A stretch of 39,089 nt of DNA from an uncultured Candidatus Saccharibacteria bacterium (GCA_964605495.1 CAZSCW010000001.1:4843-43931); one strand, 5' to 3'. Positions 771-38,268 are shown, numbered from the stretch's first letter. Notes: generated by a model not told the origin, from the letters alone. Numbers and translations: made by a program.

Positions 771-3700
771 TTATTTACCAGTAACATCTCTACGAACGCC
801 TGTTGCGGCATTTTCCCCAGCATTATTCAATGCCTCACCTCCAATTAACCCTCCAGTAGCTGTCGCTACATGCTGTGTCATTCTACCAAATACTTTTTGG
901 TATGCTGCTGCTTTCTTTTCTAAATCCTCAGCATATTTTTGTTGATATTGATAGTTCAGGTTATCTAGATTATTTTGTGAAGCATTTACATCTTTTTGTG
1001 CTGCAATTACAGCATTTTGTGCAGTTGCTTTTCGTATTTGTACTTCATGATCTTGTTCATATGTTTTTAAAGCTTCTTTTTCAAAATCACTTAACGCAGT
1101 TATTTTGTTACCAAATGCATCATCATAACGTTGTTTAGCAGCTTTATGGTCACTTTTAGCTTTGTTGTACTCAGTATCTTTTTTGTTACGTTCTGCAGTT
1201 TTTTCTGCAATATCAGCTTCAATTTGAGCTTTCTTAGTTTCATCTTTTTCATTTTTAAGTTTTGTGTTGAGTTTATTAAGTTCAGATTGAACCTCATCAG
1301 CTTCTGTTTTTTTCTTGTCCATCTCTGCCTTACTTTTTTCTGCAATTGTCTTTTCTTGACTATGTAAAGCTTCAAGTTCAAGTTCAATTTTCTTCTGTCG
1401 AGCATCTCGAACACTTGTAATTCCTGAAAGATTGTTTTGATATGCATCAGCTTTTTTAATTTTATCATCATTTTCTTTAATTTCTTTATCTTTTTCAGCA
1501 ATTGTTTTATCACGATCTTGTATTTGTATATTTTTATTTTGAAGTTCAACTTTCTTGTTATCGATTTCTGTATTTTTCTTAGCAAGATCTTCTTTTTGGA
1601 AGTTAATTTGTGCTTCAATGTTTGATTTTTTATCGGGATCTGTTTCTGCTGCTGCAGCTGTTTGTAATTGCTGAATATCTTTTTCTATTACTGTTTTTTC
1701 ACTTTCTAAATTACTGAGATCATTTTCAATATCTGCTTTTTCTGTGCTTAATGTAGTTTTTTCATTTTCAACAGTTAGTTTTTCAACATTAAGTTGGATA
1801 TTTTGGTTTTTCAGATCCTCTTTCTCTTTCTCTTTCTTATCAATAAATGCTTCAGGTCCCTGATTTTCAGCTTCCATTGCAATGCGTGCATCTTCTGCCT
1901 CTTTTGCTTTCTTGGCAGCTTCCAGTTTAGCTTGTCGTTCACGTAACTCTTGTGCATCTTTTGCTTGAGCGTCTAACAATGCATCAGCAGCTTCTTTTTT
2001 GAGTTTTTCTTCTTGTTCTTTTGCAATATGTTCTTGTCGTTTTCGGTATTGTTCTGAAAGTGTTCCTTCTGCTTTAAATCCACCTTCACGTAATCCACGA
2101 GTTCCAAGGTCGATTTTTTCTCCAGACATTTCAGTAAATTTACCAAACCCTTTCATTGCACGTTCATTTTTACGAACATCAAATGACGCAGCGCCTAATT
2201 TATCACCCATAGTACGCATCCCTTTACCAAGGAAACTGTTATCGCCACGATTAGCATTTGCAAGAGCTGATCCTGCGCGTCCTAATGTCTGTCGTCCAAG
2301 CATTGCTGTTCCACCTGTTGCGGCACCTAACGCTGCAGTGGTTGCCCAACCACTTACCTTTCCTACCATCTCTCCAATTGCTCCAGACATTTCTGTAGCG
2401 ATTTTTTTACCAGCAATTAATAACGCTGCGGCAATAAATAAAGGAAACAGTATGGCAAATATTTTAATAAACATGTTACCGTTATTAATAATAGAAGCCG
2501 GAAGTAATGTTTTAATTGCAAGAATTTTTACTGTTAAGTAAACAAAGAATAAAAAAATTGGTGTTAAGAATGATAATTTTACTAAATTATTTAGCCAGCT
2601 ATCAAATCCAATATATTTATTTTTACTGAGCATTGGTATGGCGTTACCTACGAACGCCAACGGCGCAACAATAATCGATAACCATAAGCCAACTATTCTT
2701 CCTAGGAATATAAATCCACTAGATACGAATACATAAATTAAAATTAAGTATACAAAGAATAATGTAACTGCGATTATTCCATAAGAAACATAAAATTCAG
2801 TACTTTTTGTACTTCCCACAAGTATTCCTCCAAGAGTAGCAGCTGCTGCAGCTTGACCACCTTCTACGATTAATTGAGTACCACCAGATAATAGAGTATT
2901 AACAACACTGACATCATTAGTTGCTGCATAAATAGCCCCACCAAGTACTGCACCTTTACTACTGAAACCAATACTTCTGTCATCCACGAAATCGGAAAGC
3001 AAAAGAGTTTGTGGATTTACAATAGAAATAATAGCAAGTGATGGACTTTTTATACCAAGATTTGTAAACAGTGCAGATATACTTAACGGTGATAATCCAC
3101 CGACAGCAACGTCTTTTGATGCAGCATCTTCAATTTTATTATAAAAAATATTAGCAAATAAATCAGCTGTTTGAATTACTACACGACACATCATGAAACT
3201 AAAGTTTACCAACAGTGCCATGATAATTACACGGACGACTGTTTTCTTTGGCTCAAAGCCCATGATATCTTTATTCAAAATCAAACTAAATGCGGCAATG
3301 AATAATGCAAATATGAATCCAATATTTGAAAAGTCACGTATGATTGTCCATGCACTGCGTAGTCCACTTTCTAAACCACTACCAGTTAGTCCGTACATTA
3401 CAGGGCTGATAGCAATTTTTAGCGAAACATCCATAAAGATACCTGCTACTGTAGCTATACCGTTTGGAATAAATAAAATGAAATCAATAATTAATGTATA
3501 GACACTACAAAAAACATCTATAATACCACACTCGAAATCTTTCTTTGATTCCCCTTCTTGGTCTTTTTGAATATTATTTAAAGCTTGCTGTGCTGCATCA
3601 GCATTTTGTTGTTGAATTTGTTGTTGGATTGCTGCATTATCAACAGGAGTTCCTGCTGTGAATGGTAACGGTGCAGATGGAACCGGCTTACCACCATTTG

Positions 3701-4544
3701 TTTTTATTTCATTTTCCTCTATGTGAATTTTATATGCTGTTCCTGTTATTAAGTTATTAACAACAAATGTATAAGCGAGTCCCCCAGGTTGATTTACCTT
3801 ACCTGAAATTCCAGTGATTACTTTCCTATTAATTTCTCTATCATTTATATCTGTTAATACCCAAGAGATATTTACAGGTGCATTATCTGTAGACGGCGTT
3901 GGTTGGGATGAATTTTTATAAAAAACCGCACCAGTAACTTTTATTTCATCTGGTTTTACTGGATCAATGAAACCTTCAGGAATTGAAAAACTTACTTTTA
4001 TTTCACTATCCTGGTTTGTTGTTGACGCATCTATTCTTTGCGTTGTTATCTTGCCTCCACTTACTACAAATTGAACCTTACTAGAATCAACATCAGTAGT
4101 TTGAAATAAAATATCTTCATAAAACCACCCAAGATAAGTTCCATCTGCGGGCATAGGTATTTTTTGTTTGAATGTTTTTTCCTCATTATTTTTAAAGTAA
4201 TCAGTTTCGTCAAACTCGCCATCAACAATAACAGATTGATCATTTAATCTAACTACTTTGTAATGGAGAGCGATAGCGGAAAGGCCAAGAGTATCTCCTT
4301 GTGAATAGCCTCTAATATTATATCGAACAGATGATGACATATTAAATGAAGTGTTATCACCTGGAATGTTTTCAACCGTTATTCCGCGACCAAAGAAAGT
4401 ATCACCTAATGTTCCTGCATCGACAACATTTTTCTCTACATTAATTTTTGGTGTATTACCAAACAATGACACAGAAAAAAAGACTGGAGAAAGTGTTCCA
4501 ATAAGTGTAATACATAATGCGATGGCTGCGTAAAATTTTCGCAT
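771..4544 (-). CDS. giant multi-pass membrane protein with an extracytoplasmic N-domain and a K/E-rich coiled-coil C-terminal tail
   Basis: Long ORF (track 771..4565; the MRKFYAAIALCITLIG start at 4544 gives a signal/TM). It has a ~330-aa N-domain, a Q-rich linker, roughly 8-10 hydrophobic helices, a Gly-rich segment, then ~430 aa of K/E/A/Q heptad-like sequence. No family assigned. Confidence 0.8.
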   Translation of the reverse strand: MRKFYAAIALCITLIGTLSPVFFSVSLFGNTPKINVEKNVVDAGTLGDTFFGRGITVENIPGDNTSFNMSSSVRYNIRGYSQGDTLGLSAIALHYKVVRLNDQSVIVDGEFDETDYFKNNEEKTFKQKIPMPADGTYLGWFYEDILFQTTDVDSSKVQFVVSGGKITTQRIDASTTNQDSEIKVSFSIPEGFIDPVKPDEIKVTGAVFYKNSSQPTPSTDNAPVNISWVLTDINDREINRKVITGISGKVNQPGGLAYTFVVNNLITGTAYKIHIEENEIKTNGGKPVPSAPLPFTAGTPVDNAAIQQQIQQQNADAAQQALNNIQKDQEGESKKDFECGIIDVFCSVYTLIIDFILFIPNGIATVAGIFMDVSLKIAISPVMYGLTGSGLESGLRSAWTIIRDFSNIGFIFALFIAAFSLILNKDIMGFEPKKTVVRVIIMALLVNFSFMMCRVVIQTADLFANIFYNKIEDAASKDVAVGGLSPLSISALFTNLGIKSPSLAIISIVNPQTLLLSDFVDDRSIGFSSKGAVLGGAIYAATNDVSVVNTLLSGGTQLIVEGGQAAAAATLGGILVGSTKSTEFYVSYGIIAVTLFFVYLILIYVFVSSGFIFLGRIVGLWLSIIVAPLAFVGNAIPMLSKNKYIGFDSWLNNLVKLSFLTPIFLFFVYLTVKILAIKTLLPASIINNGNMFIKIFAILFPLFIAAALLIAGKKIATEMSGAIGEMVGKVSGWATTAALGAATGGTAMLGRQTLGRAGSALANANRGDNSFLGKGMRTMGDKLGAASFDVRKNERAMKGFGKFTEMSGEKIDLGTRGLREGGFKAEGTLSEQYRKRQEHIAKEQEEKLKKEAADALLDAQAKDAQELRERQAKLEAAKKAKEAEDARIAMEAENQGPEAFIDKKEKEKEDLKNQNIQLNVEKLTVENEKTTLSTEKADIENDLSNLESEKTVIEKDIQQLQTAAAAETDPDKKSNIEAQINFQKEDLAKKNTEIDNKKVELQNKNIQIQDRDKTIAEKDKEIKENDDKIKKADAYQNNLSGITSVRDARQKKIELELEALHSQEKTIAEKSKAEMDKKKTEADEVQSELNKLNTKLKNEKDETKKAQIEADIAEKTAERNKKDTEYNKAKSDHKAAKQRYDDAFGNKITALSDFEKEALKTYEQDHEVQIRKATAQNAVIAAQKDVNASQNNLDNLNYQYQQKYAEDLEKKAAAYQKVFGRMTQHVATATGGLIGGEALNNAGENAATGVRRDVTGK

Positions 4545-4588
4545 ATCTATTATGCAGTATATCACTTTACTGAAATTAAATGCAAATT

Positions 4589-4614
4589 AAAAAACCTACA
4601 AATATAGGTTTTTT
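4589..4614. terminator. hairpin between the 948-aa and 1264-aa genes
   Basis: AACCTA (4593-4598) pairs with TAGGTT (4605-4610), extended by A/T runs. Confidence 0.45.
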
Positions 4615-4624
4615 AATATAAAAA

Positions 4625-7471
4625 TTAATCAACAATATCTTCGTTAAAAAGATAGCTTACCATTGTTTTTTTAGAAATTTTTGTCCAGTCACTACTACAC
4701 TCTACAGATTTATAATGTGCAGTTATTCCACCATACCATGCATATTCTTTTACAAAGCGATTTAATCTACATAAGGCAAGATCACCTTGGCTTAATAAAT
4801 CCCAAACAGATTTTGCCGGTTCAATTTGAAAGAACTCTGCATTATTTGTCAAATTAGGATCCGTTGGCTTATCATCATCGTTTATGTCCCCCTCTACGCC
4901 GATGTCTTGCTTGCAGTATAGTCCAGTATCCCTCACTACATTACTAAGTAATCCGACAGGAACTAATCTTGTACTTTCAGTACAATTATTTAATGGATCG
5001 GCTTGGTATGCTCCTATTTTTGTGTTTAAAATACTTTGACCTGTTAATATCTCGTTTCTAACCTCTGGGGTTGTAAATTCTTTTACCCTAGTTTTTAGAA
5101 TATCGAGCATTTTTTGATGTCCATCTGGATCTGTCGAAAGATTAAAGTTTGTTAAAATAATAATTTTTAGTTTATTACAATCCATAGTTAATTTTTCAAT
5201 TTGGTCAATTGTTGAAGTAAGTTCTTGTATAGATGTTTGTATTTTCTCGGTAGTATATGGTATAGCAATATCATTTTTTATACCATTAAATGATGTTAGT
5301 ATTGATGATTTATCTTTGATAAATTTATCAAATTTTTCATTTCCTGGAACCCACTCAGTCAGATTGGTTATATATCTCTCTGGATTCACCCATAGTGACC
5401 AGATTGCACTGAGGGCCATTTTTTTCTTTACGGTACATGTTTCGTCACAAGTATCTGTTTTTTCTATATTACTAGGATCAATTCCTGCAACTAACCATGC
5501 CGAGTCGAGTACGATACCTTTTTCTGTACTACCAGTCGGTATAGTATCTAATCCTTGAATTTTTTTCGCCCACTCCACTACTGTTTTTTTATCAACAGCA
5601 TTTAGCATATCCCACTCTGTTCCAAACAATGGGGTTTTTTCAGGCATTTTATTTAATTTTTTAGCCCAATTAACAAAGATATTTTGATCTGCTGGCGACA
5701 ATAATTCCCAGTTATGATCGGTGAATGCAATGTTTTGTGGGACTGCAAGACTGGGCTCAAAGCCGTTTAGTCCAAATACACTTGATTTTAAAGTGTTTTC
5801 GATTTGTGATAACACATTTATAGTAAATTGTTTATTTAATATATCTTTTTGGTACTGCTGGAAATTTGTTCGTACTTTTTTTAATATTGCTGTTTGTGAT
5901 TGCATAATTGATGCTCCTGGAATATTCATATCAGGGCGCTGATTAAATAATTCCATTTCTGTTTTTGCATAATCAACACTAGTAATAATGTCGTTATAGA
6001 CAGCTTGTCGCCATCGTTTTGTACCTTCCTTTCCTTTATCTTTTCTTCCTTCCAATCTTGATATTTTTGCTTTTTTATAAGTATCTAATCGTTTTTGATA
6101 TCTAAAGTCAGGACCAGGGATACATTGATCTAGTGCTATAATTTGATCAGAAAAATCCTTCCCATTAGGATCGTCTTTTGTTACAAGGTTTGAGTATTTT
6201 TTAAGCAACCCTAATTCAAATCGTGTTGATGACATTGCTGATGGGAATTCTTCTTGTAAATCAATGAGTGTATATGGTATTTGTGTCCAATTAATATTTT
6301 GACCGTTTTTACCTACCAGTGATTCTGCACCACCTACTGAACTTTTGGATGGCTTGAAATCAGCATTCAGTGCAGTTAATCCTCCTTTAATAAAACTATT
6401 TACTAATCCCAATACCATTCCTGCAATTACTTCACCAAGCTCATCTGATGCAGAAAGTGTTTTTGATCCAGCGTCGAGAGCACTAGTTATCATGCCAGTA
6501 GAAGTTCCTACTGGGTTATTAATAAACTCTTCTAAACATCCACCATAATCTTCGATTACTCCTTTTACAATACTTCCAGCAATTGCAGCTTGATCTATTT
6601 TAATATCTTTTTTAATATCGTTTATATTTGGCTCGTTTTCTTTTGGTTGTTCTGGTTCTGGTGTTGGTCCGTCACCTAATATATCTGAATTATTATTAAA
6701 AGGACTTGCAGGTACAGGAACTGATGTTTCTGCATTTGTCGCAGCATTTAATTGTGCAAGTATTTCCTTGTTTGCTTTAATACTATTAATTCTCTCCTTT
6801 TGTCTATTAACATCAGCTTTGTAATCAGAAAAACTTTTATTACATTTTCCTTGTGGTTTTATGCCTGTTGATGCTAATTTAATTTTTTCCAACTCCTTTG
6901 CTTTTGCGATTTTTTCTGCAATCTCTTGTTTTGCAAGAAGCGCTGATCCAATATTAGTGTTGGCAGGATTGGATAATGCTAAAAATCCATCCCACCCACC
7001 AACTGATGCATCATTTGCAAATTGTTTGTAATTAGCACCAATAACTTTATCTAGATCAAATGCAGAAAGTGCACTTTGACCACCTGCTGCACCTTGGGCG
7101 CTTTTAATTACCGATTTTGCAATCCCAGCAGCATAGGGGTTATTAGAAATTCCTAAATCAGTTACAAACTTGTCTACTTGTTGGCTATCTAGGTTAGCAA
7201 AATAATCAGCAAAATTAGTAATAAATCCATTTTGACTACTGTCGCCACTGGCACCACCTGTTGATTTGTTTACAATTTTATTACTGAGTTTTGCTCCTGC
7301 CATTTGTGCAAGTGAGTTAGCAAGGGTGTCCAAACCATAATCTTTTATAATTTTCAAAACGTTTTTTGCCTCATTCAAAGGGTCAATATTTTGCGCATAG
7401 ATTACATTTGGAAATAGCCCAATTGAAATAAGCAAAATTGCAGATATTATTTTTTTTTGAATAGTTTTCAT
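4625..7471 (-). CDS. secreted 948-aa hypothetical protein
   Basis: Long ORF with N-terminal signal peptide MKTIQKKIISAILLISIGLFPNVIYAQN. No family recognised. Confidence 0.8.
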   Translation of the reverse strand: MKTIQKKIISAILLISIGLFPNVIYAQNIDPLNEAKNVLKIIKDYGLDTLANSLAQMAGAKLSNKIVNKSTGGASGDSSQNGFITNFADYFANLDSQQVDKFVTDLGISNNPYAAGIAKSVIKSAQGAAGGQSALSAFDLDKVIGANYKQFANDASVGGWDGFLALSNPANTNIGSALLAKQEIAEKIAKAKELEKIKLASTGIKPQGKCNKSFSDYKADVNRQKERINSIKANKEILAQLNAATNAETSVPVPASPFNNNSDILGDGPTPEPEQPKENEPNINDIKKDIKIDQAAIAGSIVKGVIEDYGGCLEEFINNPVGTSTGMITSALDAGSKTLSASDELGEVIAGMVLGLVNSFIKGGLTALNADFKPSKSSVGGAESLVGKNGQNINWTQIPYTLIDLQEEFPSAMSSTRFELGLLKKYSNLVTKDDPNGKDFSDQIIALDQCIPGPDFRYQKRLDTYKKAKISRLEGRKDKGKEGTKRWRQAVYNDIITSVDYAKTEMELFNQRPDMNIPGASIMQSQTAILKKVRTNFQQYQKDILNKQFTINVLSQIENTLKSSVFGLNGFEPSLAVPQNIAFTDHNWELLSPADQNIFVNWAKKLNKMPEKTPLFGTEWDMLNAVDKKTVVEWAKKIQGLDTIPTGSTEKGIVLDSAWLVAGIDPSNIEKTDTCDETCTVKKKMALSAIWSLWVNPERYITNLTEWVPGNEKFDKFIKDKSSILTSFNGIKNDIAIPYTTEKIQTSIQELTSTIDQIEKLTMDCNKLKIIILTNFNLSTDPDGHQKMLDILKTRVKEFTTPEVRNEILTGQSILNTKIGAYQADPLNNCTESTRLVPVGLLSNVVRDTGLYCKQDIGVEGDINDDDKPTDPNLTNNAEFFQIEPAKSVWDLLSQGDLALCRLNRFVKEYAWYGGITAHYKSVECSSDWTKISKKTMVSYLFNEDIVD

Positions 7472-14487: not shown

Positions 14488-14982
14488 TTACCGTATTGTT
14501 ATATTTTCTAGATATTCAATCCGTTTCAAAGTTCCTTCTTCATTTAAATAAACTCCAATTCCATCTACCTGCCAGCGTGTTTCACGTGGAACTTTTTTTA
14601 AATTTGAATAGATTTCAGCAGTTTTTAATAATCGCTTTATTTTGAAAAATGAAATATTTCCAAAAGGATTAATCATTTTTTTATTTTCTTTTAAAAATGT
14701 TTCACGAGAAACAGTATTTTTCACCGTTTTTATGTCTGTTTCATGTGAAACAATTGGTTTTATTGATATTTCAACATTATTTTCAGTTTCACGTGGAACA
14801 GTAACAGATTTAACCTCAATAAAATGAATTCTATTATCTTTCTTGACTATTATATCAATCTCACCAAATCTACATGAAAAGTTTAATTCTAATATTTTGA
14901 AACCTCGTTTCACGAGAAACATTTCAGCGAATTTTTCACCAGTTGATCCAATTTTTTGTTTTTTTGATGTAAATTTACGCAT
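14488..14982 (-). CDS. YraN/UPF0102-family endonuclease-like protein with a ~45-aa parS-built insertion
   Basis: GEKFAEMFLVKRGFKILELNFSCRFGEIDIIVKKDNRIHFIEVKS core and C-terminal WQVDGIGVYL. The middle segment carries VPRET/VSHET/VSRET/VPRET, each encoded by a parS-like palindrome. Confidence 0.75.
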   Translation of the reverse strand: MRKFTSKKQKIGSTGEKFAEMFLVKRGFKILELNFSCRFGEIDIIVKKDNRIHFIEVKSVTVPRETENNVEISIKPIVSHETDIKTVKNTVSRETFLKENKKMINPFGNISFFKIKRLLKTAEIYSNLKKVPRETRWQVDGIGVYLNEEGTLKRIEYLENITIR

Positions 14983-15442
14983 AATTTTTTCTTTGATATT
15001 TGTTACACATGAAACAGGTATTTATATATAAAATATATATGTTTCACGTGAAACATATATATTTTCCACACAAGTTGAATATTGTTTTATTTTAATGTCT
15101 TTTCTATAATAGCTTATATTATAAGGCTTATATACTGCTGTATCATACAATAAAATGATTTCAGACACAATATTACCAAAGTAAAAGACATATTGTGAAG
15201 TGTCTTTTATGAACATACACCCCAATGTTATCCACAGTTCTTTTATTTATAAACCTTATTTCCCACACTAAAACATGCTTAAAATATATATGCAAAACCT
15301 TTTGGACATAATATAGGACATGTTTTCTTATTAAAACTGAGCAAAAGTGGGGATAACTTGGGGAAGTGTCTTAATAATAAATATTGTAGAGAATCACTCA
15401 AATTGAATAATATAAATTATATGTTACAGTGTCAGTATCAAT
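14983..15442. other. candidate replication origin (oriC-like AT-rich gap)
   Basis: - TTATCCACA at 15228-15236 is a perfect DnaA box.
- TTTTCCACA at 15062-15070 and TGGGGATAA at 15348-15356 (reverse orientation) have 1 mismatch each.
- TTTCCCACA at 15259-15267 has 2 mismatches.
- (TA)n tracts and a perfect parS are present.
- Gene orientation flips here.
- No dnaA gene is in the window. Confidence 0.45.
15040..15055. promoter_or_regulatory. perfect 16/16 parS site
   Basis: TGTTTCACGTGAAACA, nested in a longer palindrome AAAATATATA-TGTTTCACGTGAAACA-TATATATTTT (15030-15065). Confidence 0.85.
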
Positions 15443-15513
15443 GCGGGCATGGTTTAGTGGTAAAATACCTCCTTGCCAAGGAGGAGTCGGGGGTTCGATT
15501 CCCCCTGCCCGCA
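15443..15513 (+). tRNA. tRNA-Gly(GCC)
   Basis: Hand-folded cloverleaf: acceptor GCGGGCA/TGCCCGC, anticodon arm CCTCC-TTGCCAA-GGAGG, T-arm GGGGG-TTCGATT-CCCCC. No encoded CCA. Confidence 0.9.
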
Positions 15514-15601
15514 CAAAATAAAAATCAGTATATCTTTATCAGATATTTTATAGATACTAATATTTGATTTTTTCTAAAATCTATGCTATTTTAAGACCGT
15601 T

Positions 15602-15673
15602 GCACCTGTGGTGAAATGGATATCACGACTGACTTCGGATCAGTTATTCTAGGTTCGAGTCCTGGCAGGTGCA
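15602..15673 (+). tRNA. tRNA-Arg(TCG)
   Basis: Acceptor GCACCTG/CAGGTGC, anticodon arm ACTGA-CTTCGGA-TCAGT, T-arm CTAGG-TTCGAGT-CCTGG. No encoded CCA. Confidence 0.85.
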
Positions 15674-15710
15674 CAAAGTGAGATTATTAATTAATTTATT
15701 ATCTCCATAT

Positions 15711-15974
15711 ATGAAAAAATTATATCGTTCAAGTAATGATACTGTTATTGCAGGAGTATTAGGTGGTTTTGCTGAATATATTGAAGTTGATCCAACTATT
15801 GTTCGACTTGGTTATATTTTACTGACATTGATAACTTGTTTCTCAGGGATCTTATTTTATGTAATTTGTTGGATTATTATGCCAAAAAAAGTTTCACATG
15901 AAACACATAAACATCATACAAAAATAGAAAACCAAGAAAAGGTAGACGTTTCACATGAAACAAATTCTATATAA
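15711..15974 (+). CDS. PspC-domain membrane protein
   Basis: MKKLYRSSNDTVIAGVLGGFAEYIEVDPTIVRLGYILL... followed by a TM. Start moved to 15711 because the track ORF overlaps tRNA-Arg. The C-tail carries two VSHET units (parS-like sites). Confidence 0.8.
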   Translation: MKKLYRSSNDTVIAGVLGGFAEYIEVDPTIVRLGYILLTLITCFSGILFYVICWIIMPKKVSHETHKHHTKIENQEKVDVSHETNSI

Positions 15975-15978
15975 ATAA

Positions 15979-16006
15979 AAAGTAAGTTGTTTTTGCAACT
16001 TACTTT
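15979..16006. terminator. terminator after the PspC gene
   Basis: AAAGTAAGTTG ttttg(t) CAACTTACTTT. Confidence 0.6.
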
Positions 16007-16012
16007 GGTTAA

Positions 16013-16150
16013 TTATTGCCACATACGGCATTTATCACATCTGTATTTATATTCCCATTGTCCAGCATCAAAGTCACCTGTCCAAAATGATACCCATCGA
16101 TATTGAACATAGGAACATGAACCCTTGCAGTCTTTTTTTGAGCATGTCAT
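16013..16150 (-). CDS. possible 45-aa Cys-rich small protein
   Basis: Hand-translated MTCSKKDCKGSCSYVQYRWVSFWTGDFDAGQWEYKYRCDKCRMWQ*. Five Cys including a CxxC. No clear RBS and below the track cutoff. Confidence 0.25.
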   Translation of the reverse strand: MTCSKKDCKGSCSYVQYRWVSFWTGDFDAGQWEYKYRCDKCRMWQ

Positions 16151-16206
16151 AAGAAATTATTTTTCTAACTATATAGTTATTAATAATAAAGTCAATTTAA
16201 ATAATC

Positions 16207-17718
16207 ATGGAATTTACAATCCCAACAAACGTTACACGTGTAACAGAAACATTAAAAAACGCCGGTTATGAAGCGTTTCTTGTTGGTGGCTGTGTACGTG
16301 ACGTATTAATAGGACAAATTAACAATGTTTCACGTGAACCAAAAGACTGGGATTTAACAACCAATGCAGAACCAATACAAATCGTGAAACTCTTTGAAGA
16401 TAAAGGTTTTAAAGTTGTTTATGAGAATAATTTCGGCACAGTATCAATTGTTTTCGAAGAAGAGGAGTTCAGTAGTCCTGTCCGAGAAATTCAAATAACC
16501 CCATATCGAATAGAAGGATCATACTCTGATAAACGACACCCCGATAGTGTGTCCTTTAGTAAAAACATTAATGACGATTTGTCACGACGAGATTTTACCA
16601 TGAATGCAATCGCGATGAATCCTGTAACGTTTGAATTAATTGATCCGTTTCACGGGAAACAGGCAATAGAAAAGCAGATAATTGTTTGTGTAGGTAATCC
16701 AGCCGAACGGTTTTCAGAGGACGCATTGCGTATTATACGTGCAATTCGTTTTGCTGCGCAATTGAATTTTACTGTTTCACATGAAACCATGAATGCAATT
16801 ATTGAAACTAGAGAATTATTGCTGAATGTTTCAGCAGAACGTATTCGCGATGAATTTATTAAAATAATTAATTCAGATAATCCTGGTATTGCATTGTTTC
16901 ACATGAAACAATTAGGGTTACTTGAAATTATTCTTCCTGAAATTATTCCAGGGATTGGATGTGAGCAGGGGGGTGTACATATATATGACGTATTTGATCA
17001 CTTGGTTCATGCGGTGCAGCATGCCGCTGACAAGGGGTATATGTTTCATATTCGGTTAACAGCATTGTTTCACGATATTGGAAAACCAAAAACCAGACGT
17101 CCAGGTAATAAAAAAGCGTATACATTTTACGGGCACGAGGTAGTTGGGGCACGCATTGCAGGAAAAATAATGGAACGATTGAAATTTCCAAAAGCCGATA
17201 CAGAATTAGTTACAAAATTTGTGCGTTGGCATATGTTTTTCAGTGATACTGAATCAATTACACTGTCAGCAGTACGTCGTATGATTGCAAATGTGGGCGC
17301 CGACCACATTTGGGATCTCATGAAAGTTCGCGAATGTGATCGTGTTGGGATGAATAAAACAGAGGCTCCATATCGATTGCGTAAATATTTTGCAATGATT
17401 GAGGAATGTTTGCGTGATCCAATTAGTGTTTCACAATTAAAAATAGATGGAAATTATTTAATAAACGAGTTACACGTGAAGCCAGGACCACGTATGGGTT
17501 GGATGTTACATGCATTACTGGAGGAGGTTCTGGAAAATCCAGAAAAAAACACGATTGAATATTTGTCAGATCGTGTGAAACAGATGGAAAAAATTCCAGA
17601 TAAAGAGTTAAAAGCAATGGGTGAACAGGGAAAACAAGTAAAGGAATCAGTAGACCAAGAAGAGGTCAAAAAGTTACACGTAAAACATAATGTAACAAGA
17701 AAGCCAAAGAGTAAATAA
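16207..17718 (+). CDS. cca: CCA-adding tRNA nucleotidyltransferase with HD domain
   Basis: GGCVRDVLIG...PKDWDL nucleotidyltransferase head, RRDFTMNA, and HD motif LFHDIGKP. 503 aa with a K/E-rich tail. Consistent with tRNAs lacking an encoded CCA. Confidence 0.9.
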   Translation: MEFTIPTNVTRVTETLKNAGYEAFLVGGCVRDVLIGQINNVSREPKDWDLTTNAEPIQIVKLFEDKGFKVVYENNFGTVSIVFEEEEFSSPVREIQITPYRIEGSYSDKRHPDSVSFSKNINDDLSRRDFTMNAIAMNPVTFELIDPFHGKQAIEKQIIVCVGNPAERFSEDALRIIRAIRFAAQLNFTVSHETMNAIIETRELLLNVSAERIRDEFIKIINSDNPGIALFHMKQLGLLEIILPEIIPGIGCEQGGVHIYDVFDHLVHAVQHAADKGYMFHIRLTALFHDIGKPKTRRPGNKKAYTFYGHEVVGARIAGKIMERLKFPKADTELVTKFVRWHMFFSDTESITLSAVRRMIANVGADHIWDLMKVRECDRVGMNKTEAPYRLRKYFAMIEECLRDPISVSQLKIDGNYLINELHVKPGPRMGWMLHALLEEVLENPEKNTIEYLSDRVKQMEKIPDKELKAMGEQGKQVKESVDQEEVKKLHVKHNVTRKPKSK

Positions 17719-23407: not shown

Positions 23408-25135
23408 ATGAGAAATTTTGTGTCATGGTATACTGTTATCAATATGATGCCGTCTGCAGCAAAACAACAACAGCAAACTGTTGTAAAAAATGGAACCACT
23501 ACGACTACTACGACGGTTATTACCAACCAGTCTACTTTAGACAATACAAAATTTACTCAGGCAGAACTCGGGACACGCAGTTTTGCGCGCACAGTTGAAA
23601 AAAATATTGCAGAAATGAATAAGAAAAAAGGTGAAGTATCTACCAGTACTCTTTCAGAAATTAAACCGCACGAGGTTTCACACATTCCTGATGATTTAAC
23701 TTTTGGTTCAACGACTGATGCTAGTCAGTTACCCCAGACAGTAATAGATATACTTGCGTTTCACGGGATTACGTTTAGCGAGGGTGACCGAGTTATTCAT
23801 ATTCCTAGCGCAAAATATTTTAGTATTTCAAAGATGGAAGGTGAAGTAAAAACATATCGAACCTTTTCATTAGATGAAGATATTGTACCGCCGGAACCAG
23901 AACCAACTGCAGAATCTATTATCGAGGAGTCCGCAGAGATAGTAGTACCTGAAACAGAAGTTTCTGTAGCTTCAGATAGTGCCCAACCACTCAACACTGA
24001 TACTCTACAAAACAATACAACTGTTTCACAAAACACTGTACCCGTTATTTCACAAAACACACAAACCAATACATTGGGAACTATCGGCGTTTCACAGTCA
24101 GTAGGATCAGTAATTAGTGAGCCAACAGTACCAGAAAACTTCATGTCGCAATTTGCTTCAGGAGGTCCAACATCCGATCATTCTGAACCTGCAACACAAA
24201 CAGTAGTTACGCCTACGAAAGAAATTTCAACTGTTTCACAGGAGATAGTATCTGAAACTGCTGGATTATCACCACTGCAAATAAAACTTGAACAAACGCG
24301 CAGAGCGTCCAATCGAGAGCGCGATGCATACTTTGCAAATAGATACATTAATTCAATTACAGGAACAATTACAGAATTATTTGGTAGTAATACATTAATT
24401 CAATCAGAGTTATTTAAAACAATTCAAGATTATGACACAGCACGTAGAGCTATCTTGGTAGAGATGGGTACCACAAAAAAAACGTTTCATGAGGTAGTCA
24501 GTTGGGTGAAACAGGAACAAATTGAAATTGCTCATTTATTTTCACACCAGAAGAATCAATTATTTACGAAACTTGCAAAAGTGTTTCACTTGTCAGTACC
24601 AAGTATAATCGAAACACGAACAGGTGCTGCTCCAATGGTTTCACAGACATCGGTGTCAGTAATGAGTCAGAAATTAGGATTAGTGCCACATGTAGAAACA
24701 GGTCCCGCATGGAGTTATTTATTTAGTGTAGAACGTCCCGTAAAATTAGATTTTACAAAGACTGTGTTGGCAACAACTACCGTTAATACAGATTCATTAA
24801 GTAATACTAGTGTATCAAATATTCCCACCCCGCAGGCTAGTATTGTTACTGTGGAGCAATCTAAAAAAGTTGATCGTGCAAAACTTTATAATAAAATCCA
24901 CGATGCTGCTGTGTCTGTTTGGTTAATTAATAAAGAAATTAAACCAATCACAGAGTCAATTTCTGAAGAGGTGATAAAAGAACCAGTTGTTTCAGAACAG
25001 ATAGCCCCAGAAGAAAAACCAAAATCTGTTTCACGACCAATGGCAGCTATTAGTTTCCAACCAGAACCAGATGATGAGCCTACTGTCGATATGAACTCAC
25101 CCATGAAACAGCACCCCGAAGAATTATTTATTTAA
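23408..25135 (+). CDS. hypothetical T/S/Q/V-rich protein studded with GTTTCAC half-sites
   Basis: 575-aa ORF (alternative start 23444). Low-complexity N-half. No family recognised. Confidence 0.65.
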   Translation: MRNFVSWYTVINMMPSAAKQQQQTVVKNGTTTTTTTVITNQSTLDNTKFTQAELGTRSFARTVEKNIAEMNKKKGEVSTSTLSEIKPHEVSHIPDDLTFGSTTDASQLPQTVIDILAFHGITFSEGDRVIHIPSAKYFSISKMEGEVKTYRTFSLDEDIVPPEPEPTAESIIEESAEIVVPETEVSVASDSAQPLNTDTLQNNTTVSQNTVPVISQNTQTNTLGTIGVSQSVGSVISEPTVPENFMSQFASGGPTSDHSEPATQTVVTPTKEISTVSQEIVSETAGLSPLQIKLEQTRRASNRERDAYFANRYINSITGTITELFGSNTLIQSELFKTIQDYDTARRAILVEMGTTKKTFHEVVSWVKQEQIEIAHLFSHQKNQLFTKLAKVFHLSVPSIIETRTGAAPMVSQTSVSVMSQKLGLVPHVETGPAWSYLFSVERPVKLDFTKTVLATTTVNTDSLSNTSVSNIPTPQASIVTVEQSKKVDRAKLYNKIHDAAVSVWLINKEIKPITESISEEVIKEPVVSEQIAPEEKPKSVSRPMAAISFQPEPDDEPTVDMNSPMKQHPEELFI

Positions 25136-30335: not shown

Positions 30336-30352
30336 AAGTGCGGTTATAGTGT

Positions 30353-30659
30353 GGAAAAGTTCTCGATAGCAAATAAATATATTAAATACATGATTTGTTT
30401 TTGCTTTTCGATCGTAATGGTGATTAACCCCTTGGGTTGGTGTGAAGGCGCTGGTACATATTGCTATGCCAGTTTTCTGAGGCCTTCACACCGGACGCGG
30501 TTAATGGTCCATAAGTAGATCTGTTCTAAAGAATTTACGTCAACTCAAGTTGTTTTTACGTTGAGCTGGTTGTTGTCATCTTTTTCTAATCAGAAACCTG
30601 ATTAGAAGTAATGACTTTTCCGAACGTTTGATGATCTACCGAGAACTTTCTCGTTTTTT
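30353..30659 (+). ncRNA. candidate ~300-nt structured RNA
   Basis: - No ORF.
- 30353-30369 pairs with 30636-30652 (14 WC + 1 GU of 17).
- Internal perfect stems are GGTGTGAAGGC/GCCTTCACACC (30439-49 / 30482-92) and TTCTAATCAG-aaac-CTGATTAGAA (30584-30607).
- T6 at 30654-59. Confidence 0.4.
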
Positions 30660-30930
30660 GGTTGCTTAGTGTCCCATTTTTCATTGTTAATTTTTAAAGA
30701 ATTGATTTACCTACCAAGTATAGCAGATTCTAAAAATATGTCAAGCTTTTTGCAAAAATAGTCTATCTTTTTCGTCAGGGTAGGCTTTTTTGTAATAATT
30801 TTAATTTTTTCCATTAAATATTTTTATAGAAATATGTCAAATTTTAGTATATTTTGTCTATTTAAAACAACAAAATATCCTTTATTTATAATGATTAATA
30901 TAGTTATCCACAGTTTTATGTCGAAATGAT

Positions 30931-30959
30931 TTGACAAAATATAATGAATCTGCTATACT
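30931..30959 (+). promoter_or_regulatory. strong sigma70-type promoter firing into the noncoding rsr leader
   Basis: TTGACA-17 nt-TATACT. A perfect DnaA box TTATCCACA sits at 30904-30912 just upstream. Confidence 0.6.
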
Positions 30960-31181
30960 GCAATTAAGAACGTGAGATACAGTCATGTTCAATACCGCGA
31001 GATACATAAAAACTGTTTAATTCTTTAGACAGACTCTTGAAACCAAGTCCACTTGATATCAGCCATATGGTTGGTATCTGGAATAGTTGGAATCAGGTAC
31101 GTCACCGAATGACGTTAAATGTCGGCGCAATCATATGCGATATTGAATAATTCTTTTACAAAAAAATAAAACTATATAACT

Positions 31182-31349
31182 ATGCCAAAAACACCGAAAG
31201 ATATCTGGAAATTAACAGTTGCCCTACTGGACCAAAACGGCTTTACCACTCGTGGTGAAAAGAAAAAAGACGCACAGAAGAAAAAGAAGCAATTCTTTTT
31301 TGAAAAGCGATTACTTACTAATCCGGTTGGGAATGGAAAACACCGTTAA
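31182..31349 (+). CDS. possible 55-aa basic small protein in the leader
   Basis: Hand-translated MPKTPKDIWKLTVALLDQNGFTTRGEKKKDAQKKKKQFFFEKRLLTNPVGNGKHR*. No clear RBS. Confidence 0.25.
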   Translation: MPKTPKDIWKLTVALLDQNGFTTRGEKKKDAQKKKKQFFFEKRLLTNPVGNGKHR

Positions 31350-31399
31350 GTTACCATCTGTCTCTCTTGCAGGTTTTGGCGTAGCCAAAGAGAATGTTC

Positions 31400-31474
31400 A
31401 TAATCGTAACTGATTATGATCTTTATCCAGATTATGAAGCAATTCATAGTTTGGTAGAGATGTTCTTTCAAAAA
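31400..31474 (+). ncRNA. A-type RNA module, copy A1 (variant)
   Basis: Small hairpin ATAATC/GATTAT, then CTTTATCCAGATTATGAAG-caat-TCATAGTTTGGTAGAG, then tail ATGTTCTTTCAAAA. Confidence 0.5.
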
Positions 31475-31547
31475 TCTTGAAAGGAATATCCCCAGCATCA
31501 TTTATAAAACGGAGATGGTGTTTGGAATATTCCTTTCGAGGAGAAAA
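31475..31547 (+). ncRNA. C-type RNA module, copy C1
   Basis: TCTTGAAAGGAATATCC ... GGAATATTCCTTTCGAGGAGAAAA, a ~16-bp stem. Confidence 0.5.
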
Positions 31548-31811
31548 ACAATAGGCTGGTGTCAGGACCACAACATCTCTGAATTTACATTCGAACTAAA
31601 TCGGATATAAATGTGGGATTGTTTGCAGAAATATTAAAAAATAATTCTTTGATAAGAGAAAGTAGGAAGATGCAAGAGCTTAGTCATTTCGACTATGTAT
31701 CGTCTATCCTATGATCCGCCTTTCTGATCAAAAGGTTTCAAATTTCTTGGCAGGGTATTACAACTATATCCTTATCTATAAGCATGACGATGTGAAATGG
31801 TAAAATTTTTC

Positions 31812-31921
31812 GGGAAATTGTTTTGCAATCGAGCAAAACAATTTCCCTTCTTATCAGGATCATAACTAATACAAAAAGTTATGGTTCTGTAGGAAGTAAT
31901 GGTCCTACTGTTCTTTTAAAA
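31812..31921 (+). ncRNA. A-type RNA module, copy A2
   Basis: Perfect 15-bp hairpin GGGAAATTGTTTTGC/GCAAAACAATTTCCC, then TTCTTATCAGGATCATAA-13 nt-TTATGGTTCTGTAGGAAG, then tail ...CTGTTCTTTTAAAA. Confidence 0.55.
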
Positions 31922-32692
31922 ATTGTTCACCAAACCGTTCTGCTTCTCAACCTGTGTTGTCGCGCAGGGCCATTATCCGTAAGGATATGGCGTTCCCTTG
32001 GATCTACTTGTCGCTGACTATTATTTCCCGGCTTGGAAATGATGGAAGACTACCTATCCGAGGTTACTTCGCAAATCTAACAAATAAAATTATGTTTTAC
32101 TGTTGGTGGATTCTCAATTCTCGACCAGAGGATTGTAGGGTTTACCAACGCAAACCGAGAAGCAGAGGGTGTGACTACCTGGGGCGGTTACCCAAACAGT
32201 CCAAGCGTTAGCAATCTTGATTATTATTTTCTTTATCATGCATTCCCATCAACCAGGAAGCCAATGTTTCAAAAAGAAACGTTGGCTTCTATCATCGGGA
32301 ATGATATGTTAGGAAAATAATTTTCAAGTCGTTTGGAATGATCATGTGCGCAGTGATTGTTCGAACCAAAGGTTGGTACTCCTTTGGAAGTTGTTAGGAT
32401 GATTCAGGAAATTCTTCTAGAGCTATTCAATGGTCTGGCCGGACTATTGATAGACGTGAAGGGTTTCCTGACATCCGAAATGTCCCGGCACTATGTCAGG
32501 ACAGTTACCTTATTCGCCTCTTGTCGCTTGATCTTTGATTTCTATACCAATAGAGAGAAAAGAAACGACTGCAGAATTAGGTTACTTCGCAGAAAAGTCT
32601 TTTTATTTCGGCGGGGATCCTGTTCCGTACAGACGATACCGCCAGGCCTTGGGATTGAACATAATGTTCAATCCCTTCTTATCAGGATCATA
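31879..32692 (+). ncRNA. ~0.8-kb ORF-poor, highly structured segment between modules A2 and A3
   Basis: Multiple long stems:
- 32244-32300: CATTCCC...GGAAGCCAATGTTTC-aaaaa-GAAACGTTGGCTTC...GGGAATG
- CCTGACAT/ATGTCAGG at 32467-32499
- long-range TCTGCTTCTC (31939-48) pairing with GAGAAGCAGA (32156-65). Confidence 0.4.
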
Positions 32693-32728
32693 AAGTAATT
32701 TGTGATTCTGTAGGAATTTGTTCTTTGA
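32651..32728 (+). ncRNA. A-type RNA module, copy A3 (immediately upstream of rsr)
   Basis: GGGATTGAAC-ataat-GTTCAATCCC, then TTCTTATCAGGATCATAA-loop-TGTGATTCTGTAGGAA, then tail TTTGTTCTTTGA. Confidence 0.55.
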
Positions 32729-32758
32729 TTTTAAAATAATTCTGTTGCTGACGATTTG

Positions 32759-32813
32759 TTTATTTGGTGAAAAAGGGGGTTAAATCACATGTGACTCTCT
32801 TTCACCAAATAAA
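32759..32813 (+). promoter_or_regulatory. perfect 14-bp hairpin ending 9 nt before the rsr ATG
   Basis: TTTATTTGGTGAAA (32759-72) pairs with TTTCACCAAATAAA (32800-13). The 27-nt loop contains AAGGGGG. Confidence 0.5.
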
Positions 32814-32822
32814 ATTTCGTCT

Positions 32823-34427
32823 ATGACTACTATACATACTATTACCGCTGCTTTTGCTGGAAGATCTACAGAATCATCTCATGTTAATCATGCAGGTGGT
32901 ACATCTTTCAGAAGATCCTTGTGGGAACAACTCCTACAAGTACTCAGCACGAATACCTTGAGTGATACATTTTATGTGAAGAAGGAGCAGCTTGCTTCGG
33001 AAACCATAGATGTGATCATGGAGGCTCGTGAAAAAGATCACCGTTTCCTCGCACAAGCAATTGTGTGGGCGCGTAGAGATGGTTTAATGAAATTGGTTCC
33101 GACACTTGCTCTCGCGATTCTTTCTGGAAAGAAAGGTATCGAGCCGCAATTGTTTTTGAACACGTTTCAGCAAACAATCTTGACGCCGGATGATCTCCGC
33201 ACATTCGTTTCAATCATCAAGTCTGGTGTAGTGCCAGGCAGAAGAGGAATTGGTGGAGTGGTGCGCGATGCTGTTCGTACTTGGATGGGTGGTATTTCCG
33301 AATATCATGCTGTTAAGTACGGCTCGGTTAATTCCGATGGAGTTACACTCCGCGACATCTTGCGCCTGACTCACCCGAAACCATCTTCTGATGTGTTGAA
33401 CGAGCGTTTTGGATGGCTTGCAGGTTCGCGCAAGGGAGACCTTACGTTGAATCCGCAGATTTTGTCATTGGAAAAATTGAAGCGTGCAACAACCGAAGAA
33501 GAGATAGTTCAATTGGTTCGCCAAGGAAGACTACCCTACGAGGTTGTGGTGCCGTCAGTTCCGAAGATGACAAAGGCTGTGTGGGCCGAGCTGTTACGAC
33601 AAGCTCCGTACATGAACCTACTTCGAAACTTACGTTCGTTCCGCGAACATGGAGTTTTTGAAGACCAGGCAAATGTCGAGTACGTTGTTGGCAGACTCAC
33701 CGATCCGCGTGCGGTTGAGGCAAGTCGAGTATTACCATTCCGCTTTTTTGATGCGTTAAAAGCTTTCACATTCACCTCTGCACCCGACATGCAGATACGT
33801 GATGCGATAGCGAGCGGGCTTGAATTGTCATTTGTGAATCTTCCGAATTTCGGTTCGGAGACACATGTGACAATTGGTTCAGATGTCAGTGGTTCAATGT
33901 CATCTTATTCAATCTCTGAAAAGAGCGAGACTAAGTGCATTGATATCTGTGGTGTCTTTACCGGAGCTCTCTTAAAACGTAGCGAAAATGTACTTACACT
34001 TCCATTCGAGGGACATGTTGTACATTTGCCACTTTCAAAGCACGACAGCATCGCTGAAACGGCTCGAAAGATTGCAAGTGTGCGAGGTGGTTCCACAGCG
34101 GTTGGTGCACCAATACAATACCTGCTTGATCGTAAGATTAAGACAGATGTATTCATTGGTATCACTGACAACGAGGATTGGGCATATGGATCAGGACACG
34201 CAGTGTCAGGTAAATTTTACGACTTGTGGTTACGCTACAAGAAGGAAATTAACCCAAATGCGAAAGCATTTCTGGTAACCATTCTCCCATACCGCGACGC
34301 TGTAGCCCCTGAGGGCTCGGATGTTCATTTCATCTACGGATGGAGTGAGAAGGTATTGAATTATATTGCTTTGAAAATATCTACAGGCGCGAGTCAGGTA
34401 GATAAGATCAGAACGATAGAAGTTTGA
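32823..34427 (+). CDS. rsr: Ro60-related protein Rsr (TROVE domain + vWA domain)
   Basis: 534 aa. N-terminal NHAGGTSF...LSDTFY and ...AQAIVWARRDGLMKLVPTLALAIL match the TROVE pattern of Ro60/Rsr. The C-terminal vWA has the MIDAS motif DVSGSM. Visibly higher G+C than its neighbours. Confidence 0.85.
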   Translation: MTTIHTITAAFAGRSTESSHVNHAGGTSFRRSLWEQLLQVLSTNTLSDTFYVKKEQLASETIDVIMEAREKDHRFLAQAIVWARRDGLMKLVPTLALAILSGKKGIEPQLFLNTFQQTILTPDDLRTFVSIIKSGVVPGRRGIGGVVRDAVRTWMGGISEYHAVKYGSVNSDGVTLRDILRLTHPKPSSDVLNERFGWLAGSRKGDLTLNPQILSLEKLKRATTEEEIVQLVRQGRLPYEVVVPSVPKMTKAVWAELLRQAPYMNLLRNLRSFREHGVFEDQANVEYVVGRLTDPRAVEASRVLPFRFFDALKAFTFTSAPDMQIRDAIASGLELSFVNLPNFGSETHVTIGSDVSGSMSSYSISEKSETKCIDICGVFTGALLKRSENVLTLPFEGHVVHLPLSKHDSIAETARKIASVRGGSTAVGAPIQYLLDRKIKTDVFIGITDNEDWAYGSGHAVSGKFYDLWLRYKKEINPNAKAFLVTILPYRDAVAPEGSDVHFIYGWSEKVLNYIALKISTGASQVDKIRTIEV

Positions 34428-34728
34428 TATCTTTGAAGGGATGTTGATATTTGGCGATCGGACCGGTTTCACACTGCTTACTACTACCGATAGCAAGGTA
34501 GCGTACAAGTATTTTTTCAAACGGAAAAAATGCGGAGCAGCCGGTTGGCAACAGAAAGTACCTTGCTTGCGAGGGAAAAAGTGAAGAAGGTATCAGATTC
34601 CGCCTTTTAAAATAATTGGAATCACTATATAGACTATTTCGTCATGTTTGCGAAAGCACATGAATATCCTCGCCTTGGTGGAAAACGAAAAGGTGAAATA
34701 GTCAGCGGTTACCAGAAATGGATCCGCA

Positions 34729-34779
34729 CCTGTCCTGAAATGTATATTTCAGCTGATGAGTCCAACAGGACGAAACAGG
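34729..34779 (+). ncRNA. type III hammerhead ribozyme HHR-1
   Basis: CCUGU-C(cut after 34734)-[CUGAAAU guau AUUUCAG]-CUGAUGA-[GUCC aaca GGAC]-GAA-ACAGG. All core nucleotides are present, with a GUC cleavage triplet and stem III open. Confidence 0.9.
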
Positions 34780-34798
34780 AATTGATATCGTGAATTAC

Positions 34799-38055: not shown

Positions 38056-38178
38056 ACCCTCTCGCTCTAGAGGTATTGTCGTTAGACATGAGAGGTGCGT
38101 TTTGTCCCCGTCTTGCCGAAAAGATGGAGAGCCTCGAGGAAGCAGAGCCTCACGAGTGATTGCATCTTGCATCCTCGT

Positions 38179-38230
38179 TCTGTCCTAGAATGTATTATTC
38201 TAGCTGATGAGTCCAAAAGGACGAAACAGA
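38179..38230 (+). ncRNA. type III hammerhead ribozyme HHR-2
   Basis: UCUGU-C(cut after 38184)-[CUAGAAU guauu AUUCUAG]-CUGAUGA-[GUCC aaaa GGAC]-GAA-ACAGA. Stems I and III differ from HHR-1 only by compensatory pairs. Confidence 0.9.
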
Positions 38231-38268
38231 TTCTTTTACAAATTTCATAAACAAAAAAAACAGATAGC

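Follow-up and report, generated by a model that had tools for sequence, protein, structure and literature searches.

An origin-proximal array of 15 parS sites, most of them inside reading frames, as a probable chromosomal centromere in a Paceibacterota bacterium

We analyzed a 39,089-nt stretch of DNA (the window in what follows) that is deposited under an uncultured Candidatus Saccharibacteria bacterium (GCA_964605495.1 CAZSCW010000001.1:4843-43931) and in which a dense cluster of parS, the DNA sites recognized by ParB, had been predicted. The cluster comprises 15 sites spread over 3.1 kb (14578-17687), and the sequence evidence taken together suggests that it is very probably an origin-proximal, ParB-loading centromere on the chromosome of a bacterium belonging to Paceibacterota.

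RESULTS

Fifteen parS sites within 3.1 kb

The whole 39-kb window was scanned with the pattern TGTTTCACGTGAAACA, allowing up to three mismatches, and yielded 16 matches against 0.37 expected; none of 100 dinucleotide-preserving shuffles reached 16. The original prediction that such a cluster would not arise by chance is thus borne out, and all 14 of the sites that it listed were recovered at the same coordinates and with the same mismatch counts. Its identification of the motif also stands, because the 16-mer agrees over the full 15 to 16 bp with the parS consensus TGTTNCACGTGAAACA (PMC7022226), and the 15 sites conform to the 16-bp palindrome that defines chromosomal parS. The extent had been set too low (about 14 sites in 2.3 kb), since the match at 17672 is a true 15th site: at the homologous codons of cca, relatives carry AGTTACACGTGAAACA or AGTTGCACGTGAAACA, with two mismatches. 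The remaining three-mismatch match, at 10038, looks like a chance occurrence. Of the 15 sites, 1 is perfect, 4 have one mismatch, 8 have two, and 2 have three, as follows (L-numbers denote loci of relatives, described below).

Site 1, 14578..14593: TGTTTCACGTGGAACT, two mismatches; yraN, near the C-terminus, encodes ..VPRET..
Site 2, 14698..14713: one mismatch; expanded yraN loop, encodes VSRET
Site 3, 14737..14752: one mismatch; yraN loop, encodes VSHET
Site 4, 14785..14800: two mismatches; yraN loop, encodes VPRET
Site 5, 14906..14921: two mismatches; N-terminal part of yraN, in the other open frame (..FLVKRG..)
Site 6, 15001..15016: two mismatches; intergenic, directly upstream of the yraN start; a copy is also present in L008
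Site 7, 15040..15055: no mismatch, the sole perfect copy; intergenic
Site 8, 15890..15905: two mismatches; pspC C-terminal tail, encodes VSHET
Site 9, 15947..15962: two mismatches; pspC C-terminal tail, encodes VSHET
Site 10, 16230..16245: CGTTACACGTGTAACA, three mismatches, a symmetric variant; cca N-terminus, encodes NVTRVT
Site 11, 16326..16341: one mismatch; cca, arose with a four-codon insertion (NNVS) that outgroups do not have
Site 12, 16646..16661: two mismatches; cca, encodes DPFHGKQ
Site 13, 16773..16788: two mismatches; cca, encodes VSHET; kept in L008-L012 and L014
Site 14, 16895..16910: one mismatch; cca, encodes LFHMKQ; kept in L008, L009, and L010
Site 15, 17672..17687: AGTTACACGTAAAACA, three mismatches in the window; cca C-terminal tail, encodes KLHVKH

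When the 15 sites are aligned, G2, T3, T4, C6, A7, A13, and C15 do not vary, positions 2-8 and 11-16 vary hardly at all, and the central positions 9-10 vary most. Information is confined to positions 2-16 and is zero in the flanks, which argues that the sites are not copies of a larger repeat. Their spacing is irregular, ranging from 39 to 850 bp. The perfect copy (site 7) forms the center of a 36-bp perfect palindrome (15030-15065, AAAATATATATGTTTCACGTGAAACATATATATTTT), the arms of which, outside the site itself, are lineage specific and not present in L008 or L010.

The array is confined to one locus and conserved in relatives

Fifteen metagenome contigs carry the same locus, and the organism occurs in the ENA samples ERZ17987536, ERZ3756520, ERZ22307367, and ERZ27283032. 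Loci of relatives are numbered L008-L036 (cca loci), L093 and L094 (leftward extension), and L100 (a dnaA relative), and overlapping contigs from other samples extend the window by 9.2 kb on the left and 9.8 kb on the right into a 58-kb composite. In scans for specificity, only sites with up to two mismatches were counted, of which the window holds 13. Specifically, such sites occur in the composite at 14578-16910 only; the other 55 kb contain none, and the motif therefore does not occur at equal density everywhere. Comparison with related genomes points the same way, with 75 sites in the cca zones (~5 kb each) of 14 genomes versus 1 in the remaining 185 kb of these loci. Cca loci of unrelated bacteria, 750 kb in all, have no such site, and 766 kb around dnaA on Paceibacteria-like metagenome contigs have one. 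A scan of JGI metagenomes, which gave 80 dnaA loci, found no parS close to dnaA.

The number of sites declines with evolutionary distance from the window: 10 in L008 and L011, 7 in L010, 5 in L012 and L013, 4 in L014 and L020, 3 in L016, and 1 in L018 and L036. A perfect or one-mismatch site adjoins yraN in most relatives, and single cca sites have orthologues in other species. All 16 columns of site 7 are invariant across the window, L008, and L010, and the 16 bases of site 12 are identical in the window, L008, L009, and L010. For site 10, the corresponding codons of relatives match the parS consensus more closely than do those of the window.

These data bear on whether the sites might be copies of a mobile palindromic element, similar to miniature inverted-repeat transposable elements (MITEs), repetitive extragenic palindromes (REPs), or Rickettsia palindromic elements (RPEs), or else a genome-wide uptake or methylation motif that is locally frequent. 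The sites are palindromic, and some were gained with in-frame insertions, which is how Rickettsia palindromic elements arrive. However, the similarity ends at the 16-mer, with neither shared flanks nor a larger unit, and the rest of the genome sampled is devoid of copies, as is essentially all sequence outside the homologous zone in relatives, where the sites are, moreover, orthologous one by one. An origin of this kind is very improbable; a mobile palindromic repeat in particular was rejected on the lack of flank information and the confinement to a single locus.

Sites are written into reading frames, and selection acts on the DNA motif

As many as 13 of the 15 sites are coding (5 in yraN, 2 in the tail of pspC, and 6 in cca), and the other 2 lie in the spacer between yraN and the tRNA genes, a placement that we attribute to the scarcity of intergenic DNA in this genome. 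The genes of the locus are as follows.

14488..14982, minus strand: yraN (UPF0102, predicted nuclease fold), 164 amino acids (aa), host of 5 sites
15056..15442: AT-rich spacer between the divergent yraN and tRNA genes, with DnaA-box-like sites
15443..15514, plus strand: tRNA-Gly(GCC)
15602..15674, plus strand: tRNA-Arg(TCG)
15711..15974, plus strand: pspC-domain protein, called with 87 aa on other contigs, host of 2 sites (C-terminal tail)
16207..17718, plus strand: cca (CCA-adding enzyme/poly(A) polymerase family), 503 aa, host of 6 sites

Because one frame of the parS palindrome contains a TGA stop on either strand, coding sites are restricted to the two open frames, which yield V-S/P/T-R/H-E-T or F/L-H-x-K-Q/H. 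The gains of sites can be followed in the host proteins. In YraN, the Pfam match to UPF0102 ends at residue 60, where a lineage-variable loop that carries the sites begins; this loop is short or missing in relatives (YraN has 122 aa in L020 versus 164 aa in the window) and was filled with sites independently in other lineages. In cca, outgroups that lack the sites have different residues at these positions: DL(Y/F)NGxxD was replaced by DPFHGKQA (site 12), GIxxMxxL by ALFHMKQL, and FxIExxT by FTVSHET, and the site at 16326 was gained together with its four inserted codons.

The YraN loop of L013 (3981-4044) contains three parS-like sites at an exact spacing of 24 bp, which encode ..VTRDTGNNVSRVTGLNVPRET.. 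and represent an independent expansion of the same loop.

Selection was examined in the cca genes of the window, L008, L009, and L010, using the degenerate codons of residues conserved in all four and the Fisher test. An identical synonymous codon was used by all four genes at 19 of 25 such positions inside sites versus 75 of 293 outside (p = 7e-7), and 84% of the nucleotide columns inside sites were invariant versus 59% outside (Fisher p = 2e-7). This excess of identical synonymous codons, together with the residue changes and the insertion relative to outgroups, indicates that selection acts on the DNA motif, which the host proteins accommodate.

The opposite possibility, i.e., selection on the protein for a V-S-R/H-E-T peptide with the palindrome as a by-product, would account for the V-[SPT]-[RH]-[EV]-[TP] type of peptide at 9 of the 13 coding sites, but not for the other frame (FHxKQ, LHVKH, FLVKR) used at the remaining 4, nor for the two intergenic sites. 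Furthermore, the three host proteins are unrelated, their genes lie on both strands, and synonymous positions are three-fold more conserved inside the sites. The frame, strand, and synonymous-site data refute this explanation at the sequence level, and its probability is close to negligible. Clustering beyond chance, conservation, and purifying selection at the DNA level argue instead that the array functions in protein binding, with ParB as by far the most likely binder.

The locus is chromosomal

The nearest genomes are metagenome-assembled genomes (MAGs) labeled Candidatus Paceibacterota or Nomurabacteria, with some labeled Saccharibacteria, and the window represents part of the chromosome of a low-GC member of Paceibacterota within the CPR (candidate phyla radiation, also called Patescibacteria). 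To the left of ~15.0 kb, nearly all genes are on the minus strand (yraN/UPF0102, rpsO, a gene for a 485-aa protein, a dksA-like gene, comM, ksgA, and genes for large surface proteins), the exception being one LysM/M23 peptidase gene on the plus strand. To the right, all are on the plus strand, i.e., the genes for tRNA-Gly(GCC), tRNA-Arg(TCG), the PspC-domain protein, the CCA-adding enzyme, and a CNNM/CBS transporter. The leftward extension has genes resembling those of type IV secretion systems (T4SS), followed by yidC-yidD-rnpA-rpmH and dnaA (both 6-9 kb left of the window), and the rightward extension (~10 kb) encodes HD_4, RNase Y, ClpP, and trigger factor.

A plasmid-style centromere had been suggested for this array. 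The density of sites is high, as it would be in a centromere of a plasmid or an integrated element, and T4SS-like genes (PrgI, TraC-like, and VirB4-like) lie 15-20 kb to the left. However, the sites occupy housekeeping genes that are conserved, the junction keeps its synteny throughout a family-level clade, and the surroundings are those of a chromosome (rpsO, ksgA, cca, and the tRNA genes, with rpmH-rnpA-yidC and dnaA to the left). The motif is the chromosomal consensus rather than a plasmid-specific sequence, the irregular spacing is not that of iterons, no unit larger than the 16-mer is repeated, and parAB is not found nearby. The plasmid-type interpretation is not supported and is scarcely credible for this locus.

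The order and orientation of the tRNA-Gly(GCC) and tRNA-Arg(TCG) genes vary across L008-L036 (both plus, Arg minus with Gly plus, or Gly minus with Arg plus), which suggests repeated small inversions at the junction beside the spacer with the perfect parS and the DnaA boxes.

Relation of the array to the replication origin

The spacer between yraN and the tRNA genes measures 460 bp and is 75% AT (window, 65%), rising to 78-81% near the perfect parS; neither a defined 13-mer nor a DnaA-trio was recognized in it. It contains the following DnaA-box-like sites.

15062: TTTTCCACA, 6 bp from the perfect parS
15207: TTATGAACA
15228: TTATCCACA
15259: TTTCCCACA
15348, minus strand: TTATCCCCA

Of these five sites (15062-15356), three have no more than one mismatch to the TTATCCACA-like box and two have two mismatches. 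The spacer is the densest 400-bp cluster of DnaA boxes in the 58 kb, yet it amounts to only 3 boxes. Nine genomes, the spacers of which can otherwise hardly be aligned, have kept the pair at 15207/15228, including a perfect TTATCCACA. The cumulative GC skew of the composite reaches its minimum at 15299, which coincides with the conserved box pair and with the switch in gene orientation, about 20 genes to its left lying on the minus strand; the skew is confounded with that orientation, and in a test restricted to four-fold sites, meant to tell replication from transcription effects, GC was ambiguous while TA weakly favored an origin at 15.3 kb.

The dnaA gene starts ~8.85 kb left of the window and ~24 kb from the perfect parS. 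In L020 (3739-9411), the order is dnaN, dnaA, yraN, three DnaA boxes, tRNA-Arg, tRNA-Gly, and cca, with dnaA directly abutting yraN, whereas in the lineage of the window dnaA and yraN are separated by ~24 kb that extend from rpmH to yidC, through the T4SS-like genes and those for large surface proteins, to rpsO. From the order in L020, the spacer of the window would correspond to the dnaA-upstream box cluster of an apparently bipartite origin, the halves of which are now ~24 kb apart. The part of the spacer at 15056..15442 is a candidate oriC or a candidate dnaA-upstream half of a bipartite origin.

Two observations weigh against an origin at the array itself: (i) of 30 Paceibacteria-like dnaA loci, at least 18 have their best cluster of DnaA boxes in the dnaA-dnaN spacer, and (ii) in the close relative L100 (DnaA 80% identical), that spacer contains about six boxes and an AT-rich stretch. 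These clusters led us to downgrade a confident placement of oriC inside the array. Unwinding at dnaA-dnaN, some 25 kb from the array, has roughly an even chance of being correct, and unwinding within the array spacer a somewhat smaller one. Under either placement the array is origin proximal, because conserved DnaA boxes lie in its spacer and because dnaA, ~24 kb away here, abuts yraN in L020.

In the distant Paceibacterota locus L031 (7960-8992), at least five perfect parS copies are arranged in ~229-bp tandem repeats, two per repeat, in an array that an assembly gap breaks up. Immediately after it come seven DnaA boxes at regular intervals and tRNA-Pro, and dnaA is not present within 9 kb. 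The tandem repeats represent a different route to a multi-site array.

The close DnaA homologues on record (P0001-P0011) are all truncated fragments on short contigs, and assemblies of this lineage seem to break within or near dnaA.

ParB as the predicted reader of the array

Several results weigh against assigning the array to ParB. As originally stated, neither ParA nor ParB was found in the window, by Pfam searches of ~30 of its open reading frames (ORFs), motif patterns run over all six frames, tblastn, or phmmer. Likewise, searches with the Spo0J and Soj sequences of B. subtilis by tblastn and phmmer found neither protein in the 58-kb composite or in the 14 cca loci and 80 dnaA loci (the latter from JGI metagenome contigs), which together cover ~1 Mb of relatives. 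The queries were sound, as both gave strong Pfam matches (ParB_N/HTH_ParB and ParA-type, respectively) and Spo0J was 100% identical to database entry P0012. A database query with Spo0J for ParB proteins of CPR bacteria returned Bacillus proteins only, and a search of the available papers found no work on ParB, parS, or chromosome partitioning in Patescibacteria/CPR. Finally, 12 of the 15 sites differ from the consensus, five of them by a change of the central CG to CA.

These results leave parAB adjoining neither the array nor dnaA in the clade loci examined, unlike the situation in many bacteria (PMC7022226). They also raise the possibility that a protein other than a canonical ParB, such as a ParB/Noc-family paralogue or a regulator that recognizes the CACGTG core, uses the array as an operator or landing pad and acts on origin firing or the transcription of yraN, the tRNA genes, pspC, and cca rather than on segregation. 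The failure to find parB anywhere in the sequence searched agrees with this, as do the variability of the central positions 9-10 and the conserved DnaA boxes flanked by the array, one of them only 6 bp from the perfect site. On the other hand, the conserved positions fit parS over the full 15 to 16 bp, including the outer GTTTC/GAAAC arms that extend beyond the CACGTG core (PMC7022226), and parB is a single gene, while the 58 kb covered represent only ~6-10% of a genome of roughly 0.6-1 Mb. We consider a non-canonical binder unlikely. That ParB is the reader is our inference, because the sites match the pan-bacterial consensus over their full length and are under selection.

Other features of the window

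A cluster consisting of half-sites only is present at 23675-25028, where eight copies of GTTTCAC and one of GTGAAAC occur in 1.35 kb versus ~0.17 expected. It lies inside an ORF of 575 aa with no Pfam match, and most copies encode V-S-Q/H/R, with two in another frame. The half-parS heptamer GTTTCAC is reported to be bound by P. aeruginosa ParB (PMC5961200, PMC10419367); the half-sites of that species are dispersed genome-wide, whereas those of the window form a cluster at a distance of 8 kb from the array and are not conserved in L010.

The T4SS-like set (PrgI, TraC-like, and a VirB4/TraG-type ATPase; L093 14581-17516 and L094 7118-9588) lies just left of the window and adjoins very large proteins encoded at 771-7471. 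For a 948-aa ORF, no database record with the same start was found.

Two candidate type III hammerhead ribozymes were detected on the plus strand at 34727-34781 and 38177-38232 (40.6 and 42.8 bits, E ~2e-7). Although they score under the Rfam gathering score of 48.5, both have complete CUGAUGA...CGAAAC cores, a pattern with two matches versus 0.02 expected, and they bracket a 3.4-kb stretch poor in ORFs. Directly upstream of a Ro60/TROVE (Rsr-like) gene (32823-34427) are 2.5 kb (30336-32822) without an ORF of at least 120 aa, near which the GC content climbs to 40-47%. No credible Rfam match was found in this region, which may encode an unannotated RNA, Y-RNA-like or of another kind.

DISCUSSION

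Three reports (PMC7053999, PMC8494293, PMC7083940) describe ParB dimers that recognize parS, close as clamps bound to cytidine triphosphate (CTP), and slide onto adjacent DNA. By analogy with these characterized proteins, a CTP-dependent clamp of ParB would be nucleated at each site of the array and slide to the flanking DNA. Fifteen loading sites in 3.1 kb would increase the loading flux and concentrate ParB on a very small region at the origin element, and the compact partition complex formed there would be moved by ParA and/or load SMC. Such a complex would be centered on the divergent junction that has yraN on one side and tRNA-Gly, tRNA-Arg, pspC, and cca on the other, and the array may overlap the origin itself.

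A more far-reaching proposal, which we regard as possible but rather doubtful, is that centromere and origin element constitute a single 3-kb module that was split from dnaA and parAB and grew as ParB sites were written into housekeeping frames, with replication starting inside the array or with a distant ParB or a non-canonical protein as its reader. The rewriting of coding sequence that this proposal includes can be read directly from the alignments, i.e., the insertion in the YraN loop, the PspC tail, and the substitutions and four-codon insertion in the CCA-adding enzyme. If replication does start inside the array, ParB clamps and DnaA would share the same few hundred base pairs.

Among the closest known systems is that of M. 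xanthus, in which 22 parS sites form a 3-kb cluster ~4 kb upstream of parA and ~35 kb from oriC (PMC3899335); a second study counts 24 sites (PMC3778016). With this precedent, the density of the present array, first described as exceptional, is not unprecedented. Each is a dense array of canonical 16-bp parS on the chromosome (~5-7 sites per kb) that mixes perfect and degenerate copies, and each is origin proximal (30-35 kb from ori/dnaA in M. xanthus and ~24 kb from dnaA here). They differ in that the M. xanthus array lies ~4 kb upstream of parAB and its binding by ParB has been demonstrated in vitro, whereas here parAB is not found in 58 kb and ParB binding is predicted. In addition, the M. 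xanthus genome is roughly tenfold larger, and the present array has 13 of its 15 sites within reading frames, at a junction with DnaA boxes.

The Spo0J/parS system of B. subtilis (10 origin-proximal sites, one of them inside spo0J) has a consensus identical to the one found here. In both organisms sites are tolerated in coding sequence, and the Spo0J protein contains ..NVPRET.., the same peptide as in YraN, which we take to mark the position of parS within the spo0J gene. In B. subtilis, the sites spread over hundreds of kilobases, whereas the 15 sites here fall within 3.1 kb. Functionally, Spo0J/parS is tied to oriC and DnaA via Soj (PMC7614844).

The centromeres of plasmids (e.g., sopC of F) consist of regular tandem iterons of plasmid-specific sequence beside their own parAB operon. 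They share with the present array the packing of many binding sites (predicted ones in our case) into short DNA, but differ from it in spacing, in consensus, and in gene context, the latter comprising housekeeping genes with no parAB nearby.

In C. glutamicum, 10 parS sites occupy 35 kb at a distance of 73 kb from oriC, 9 of the 10 are intergenic, and one site suffices, which makes the multiplicity redundant or quantitative (PMC7083940). The two organisms have in common a single origin-proximal cluster that serves as a hub for ParB and SMC loading, a role that is predicted for the present array, and they differ in density (~17-fold lower in C. glutamicum) and in the location of the sites, mostly intergenic there and mostly coding (13 of 15) here.

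We therefore class the locus as a new case of an established type of bacterial centromere rather than as a type of its own, and the current picture of how ParABS works is unchanged. What is new is the phylum, on whose parS or ParB the available papers contained no work, the share of sites that lie in reading frames with traceable changes in the proteins, and the position astride a conserved DnaA-box element apart from dnaA and parAB. For this clade of Paceibacteria, the locus provides a concrete conserved centromere and a candidate landmark of the origin, and the pairing of a parS cluster with conserved DnaA boxes next to cca could serve for orienting CPR MAGs and setting their start. The variant sites form a ready panel for studying ParB specificity. 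More generally, with gains of sites traced to residue changes and insertions in three proteins, the array is a clean natural case in which selection on a DNA-binding site overrides protein sequence.

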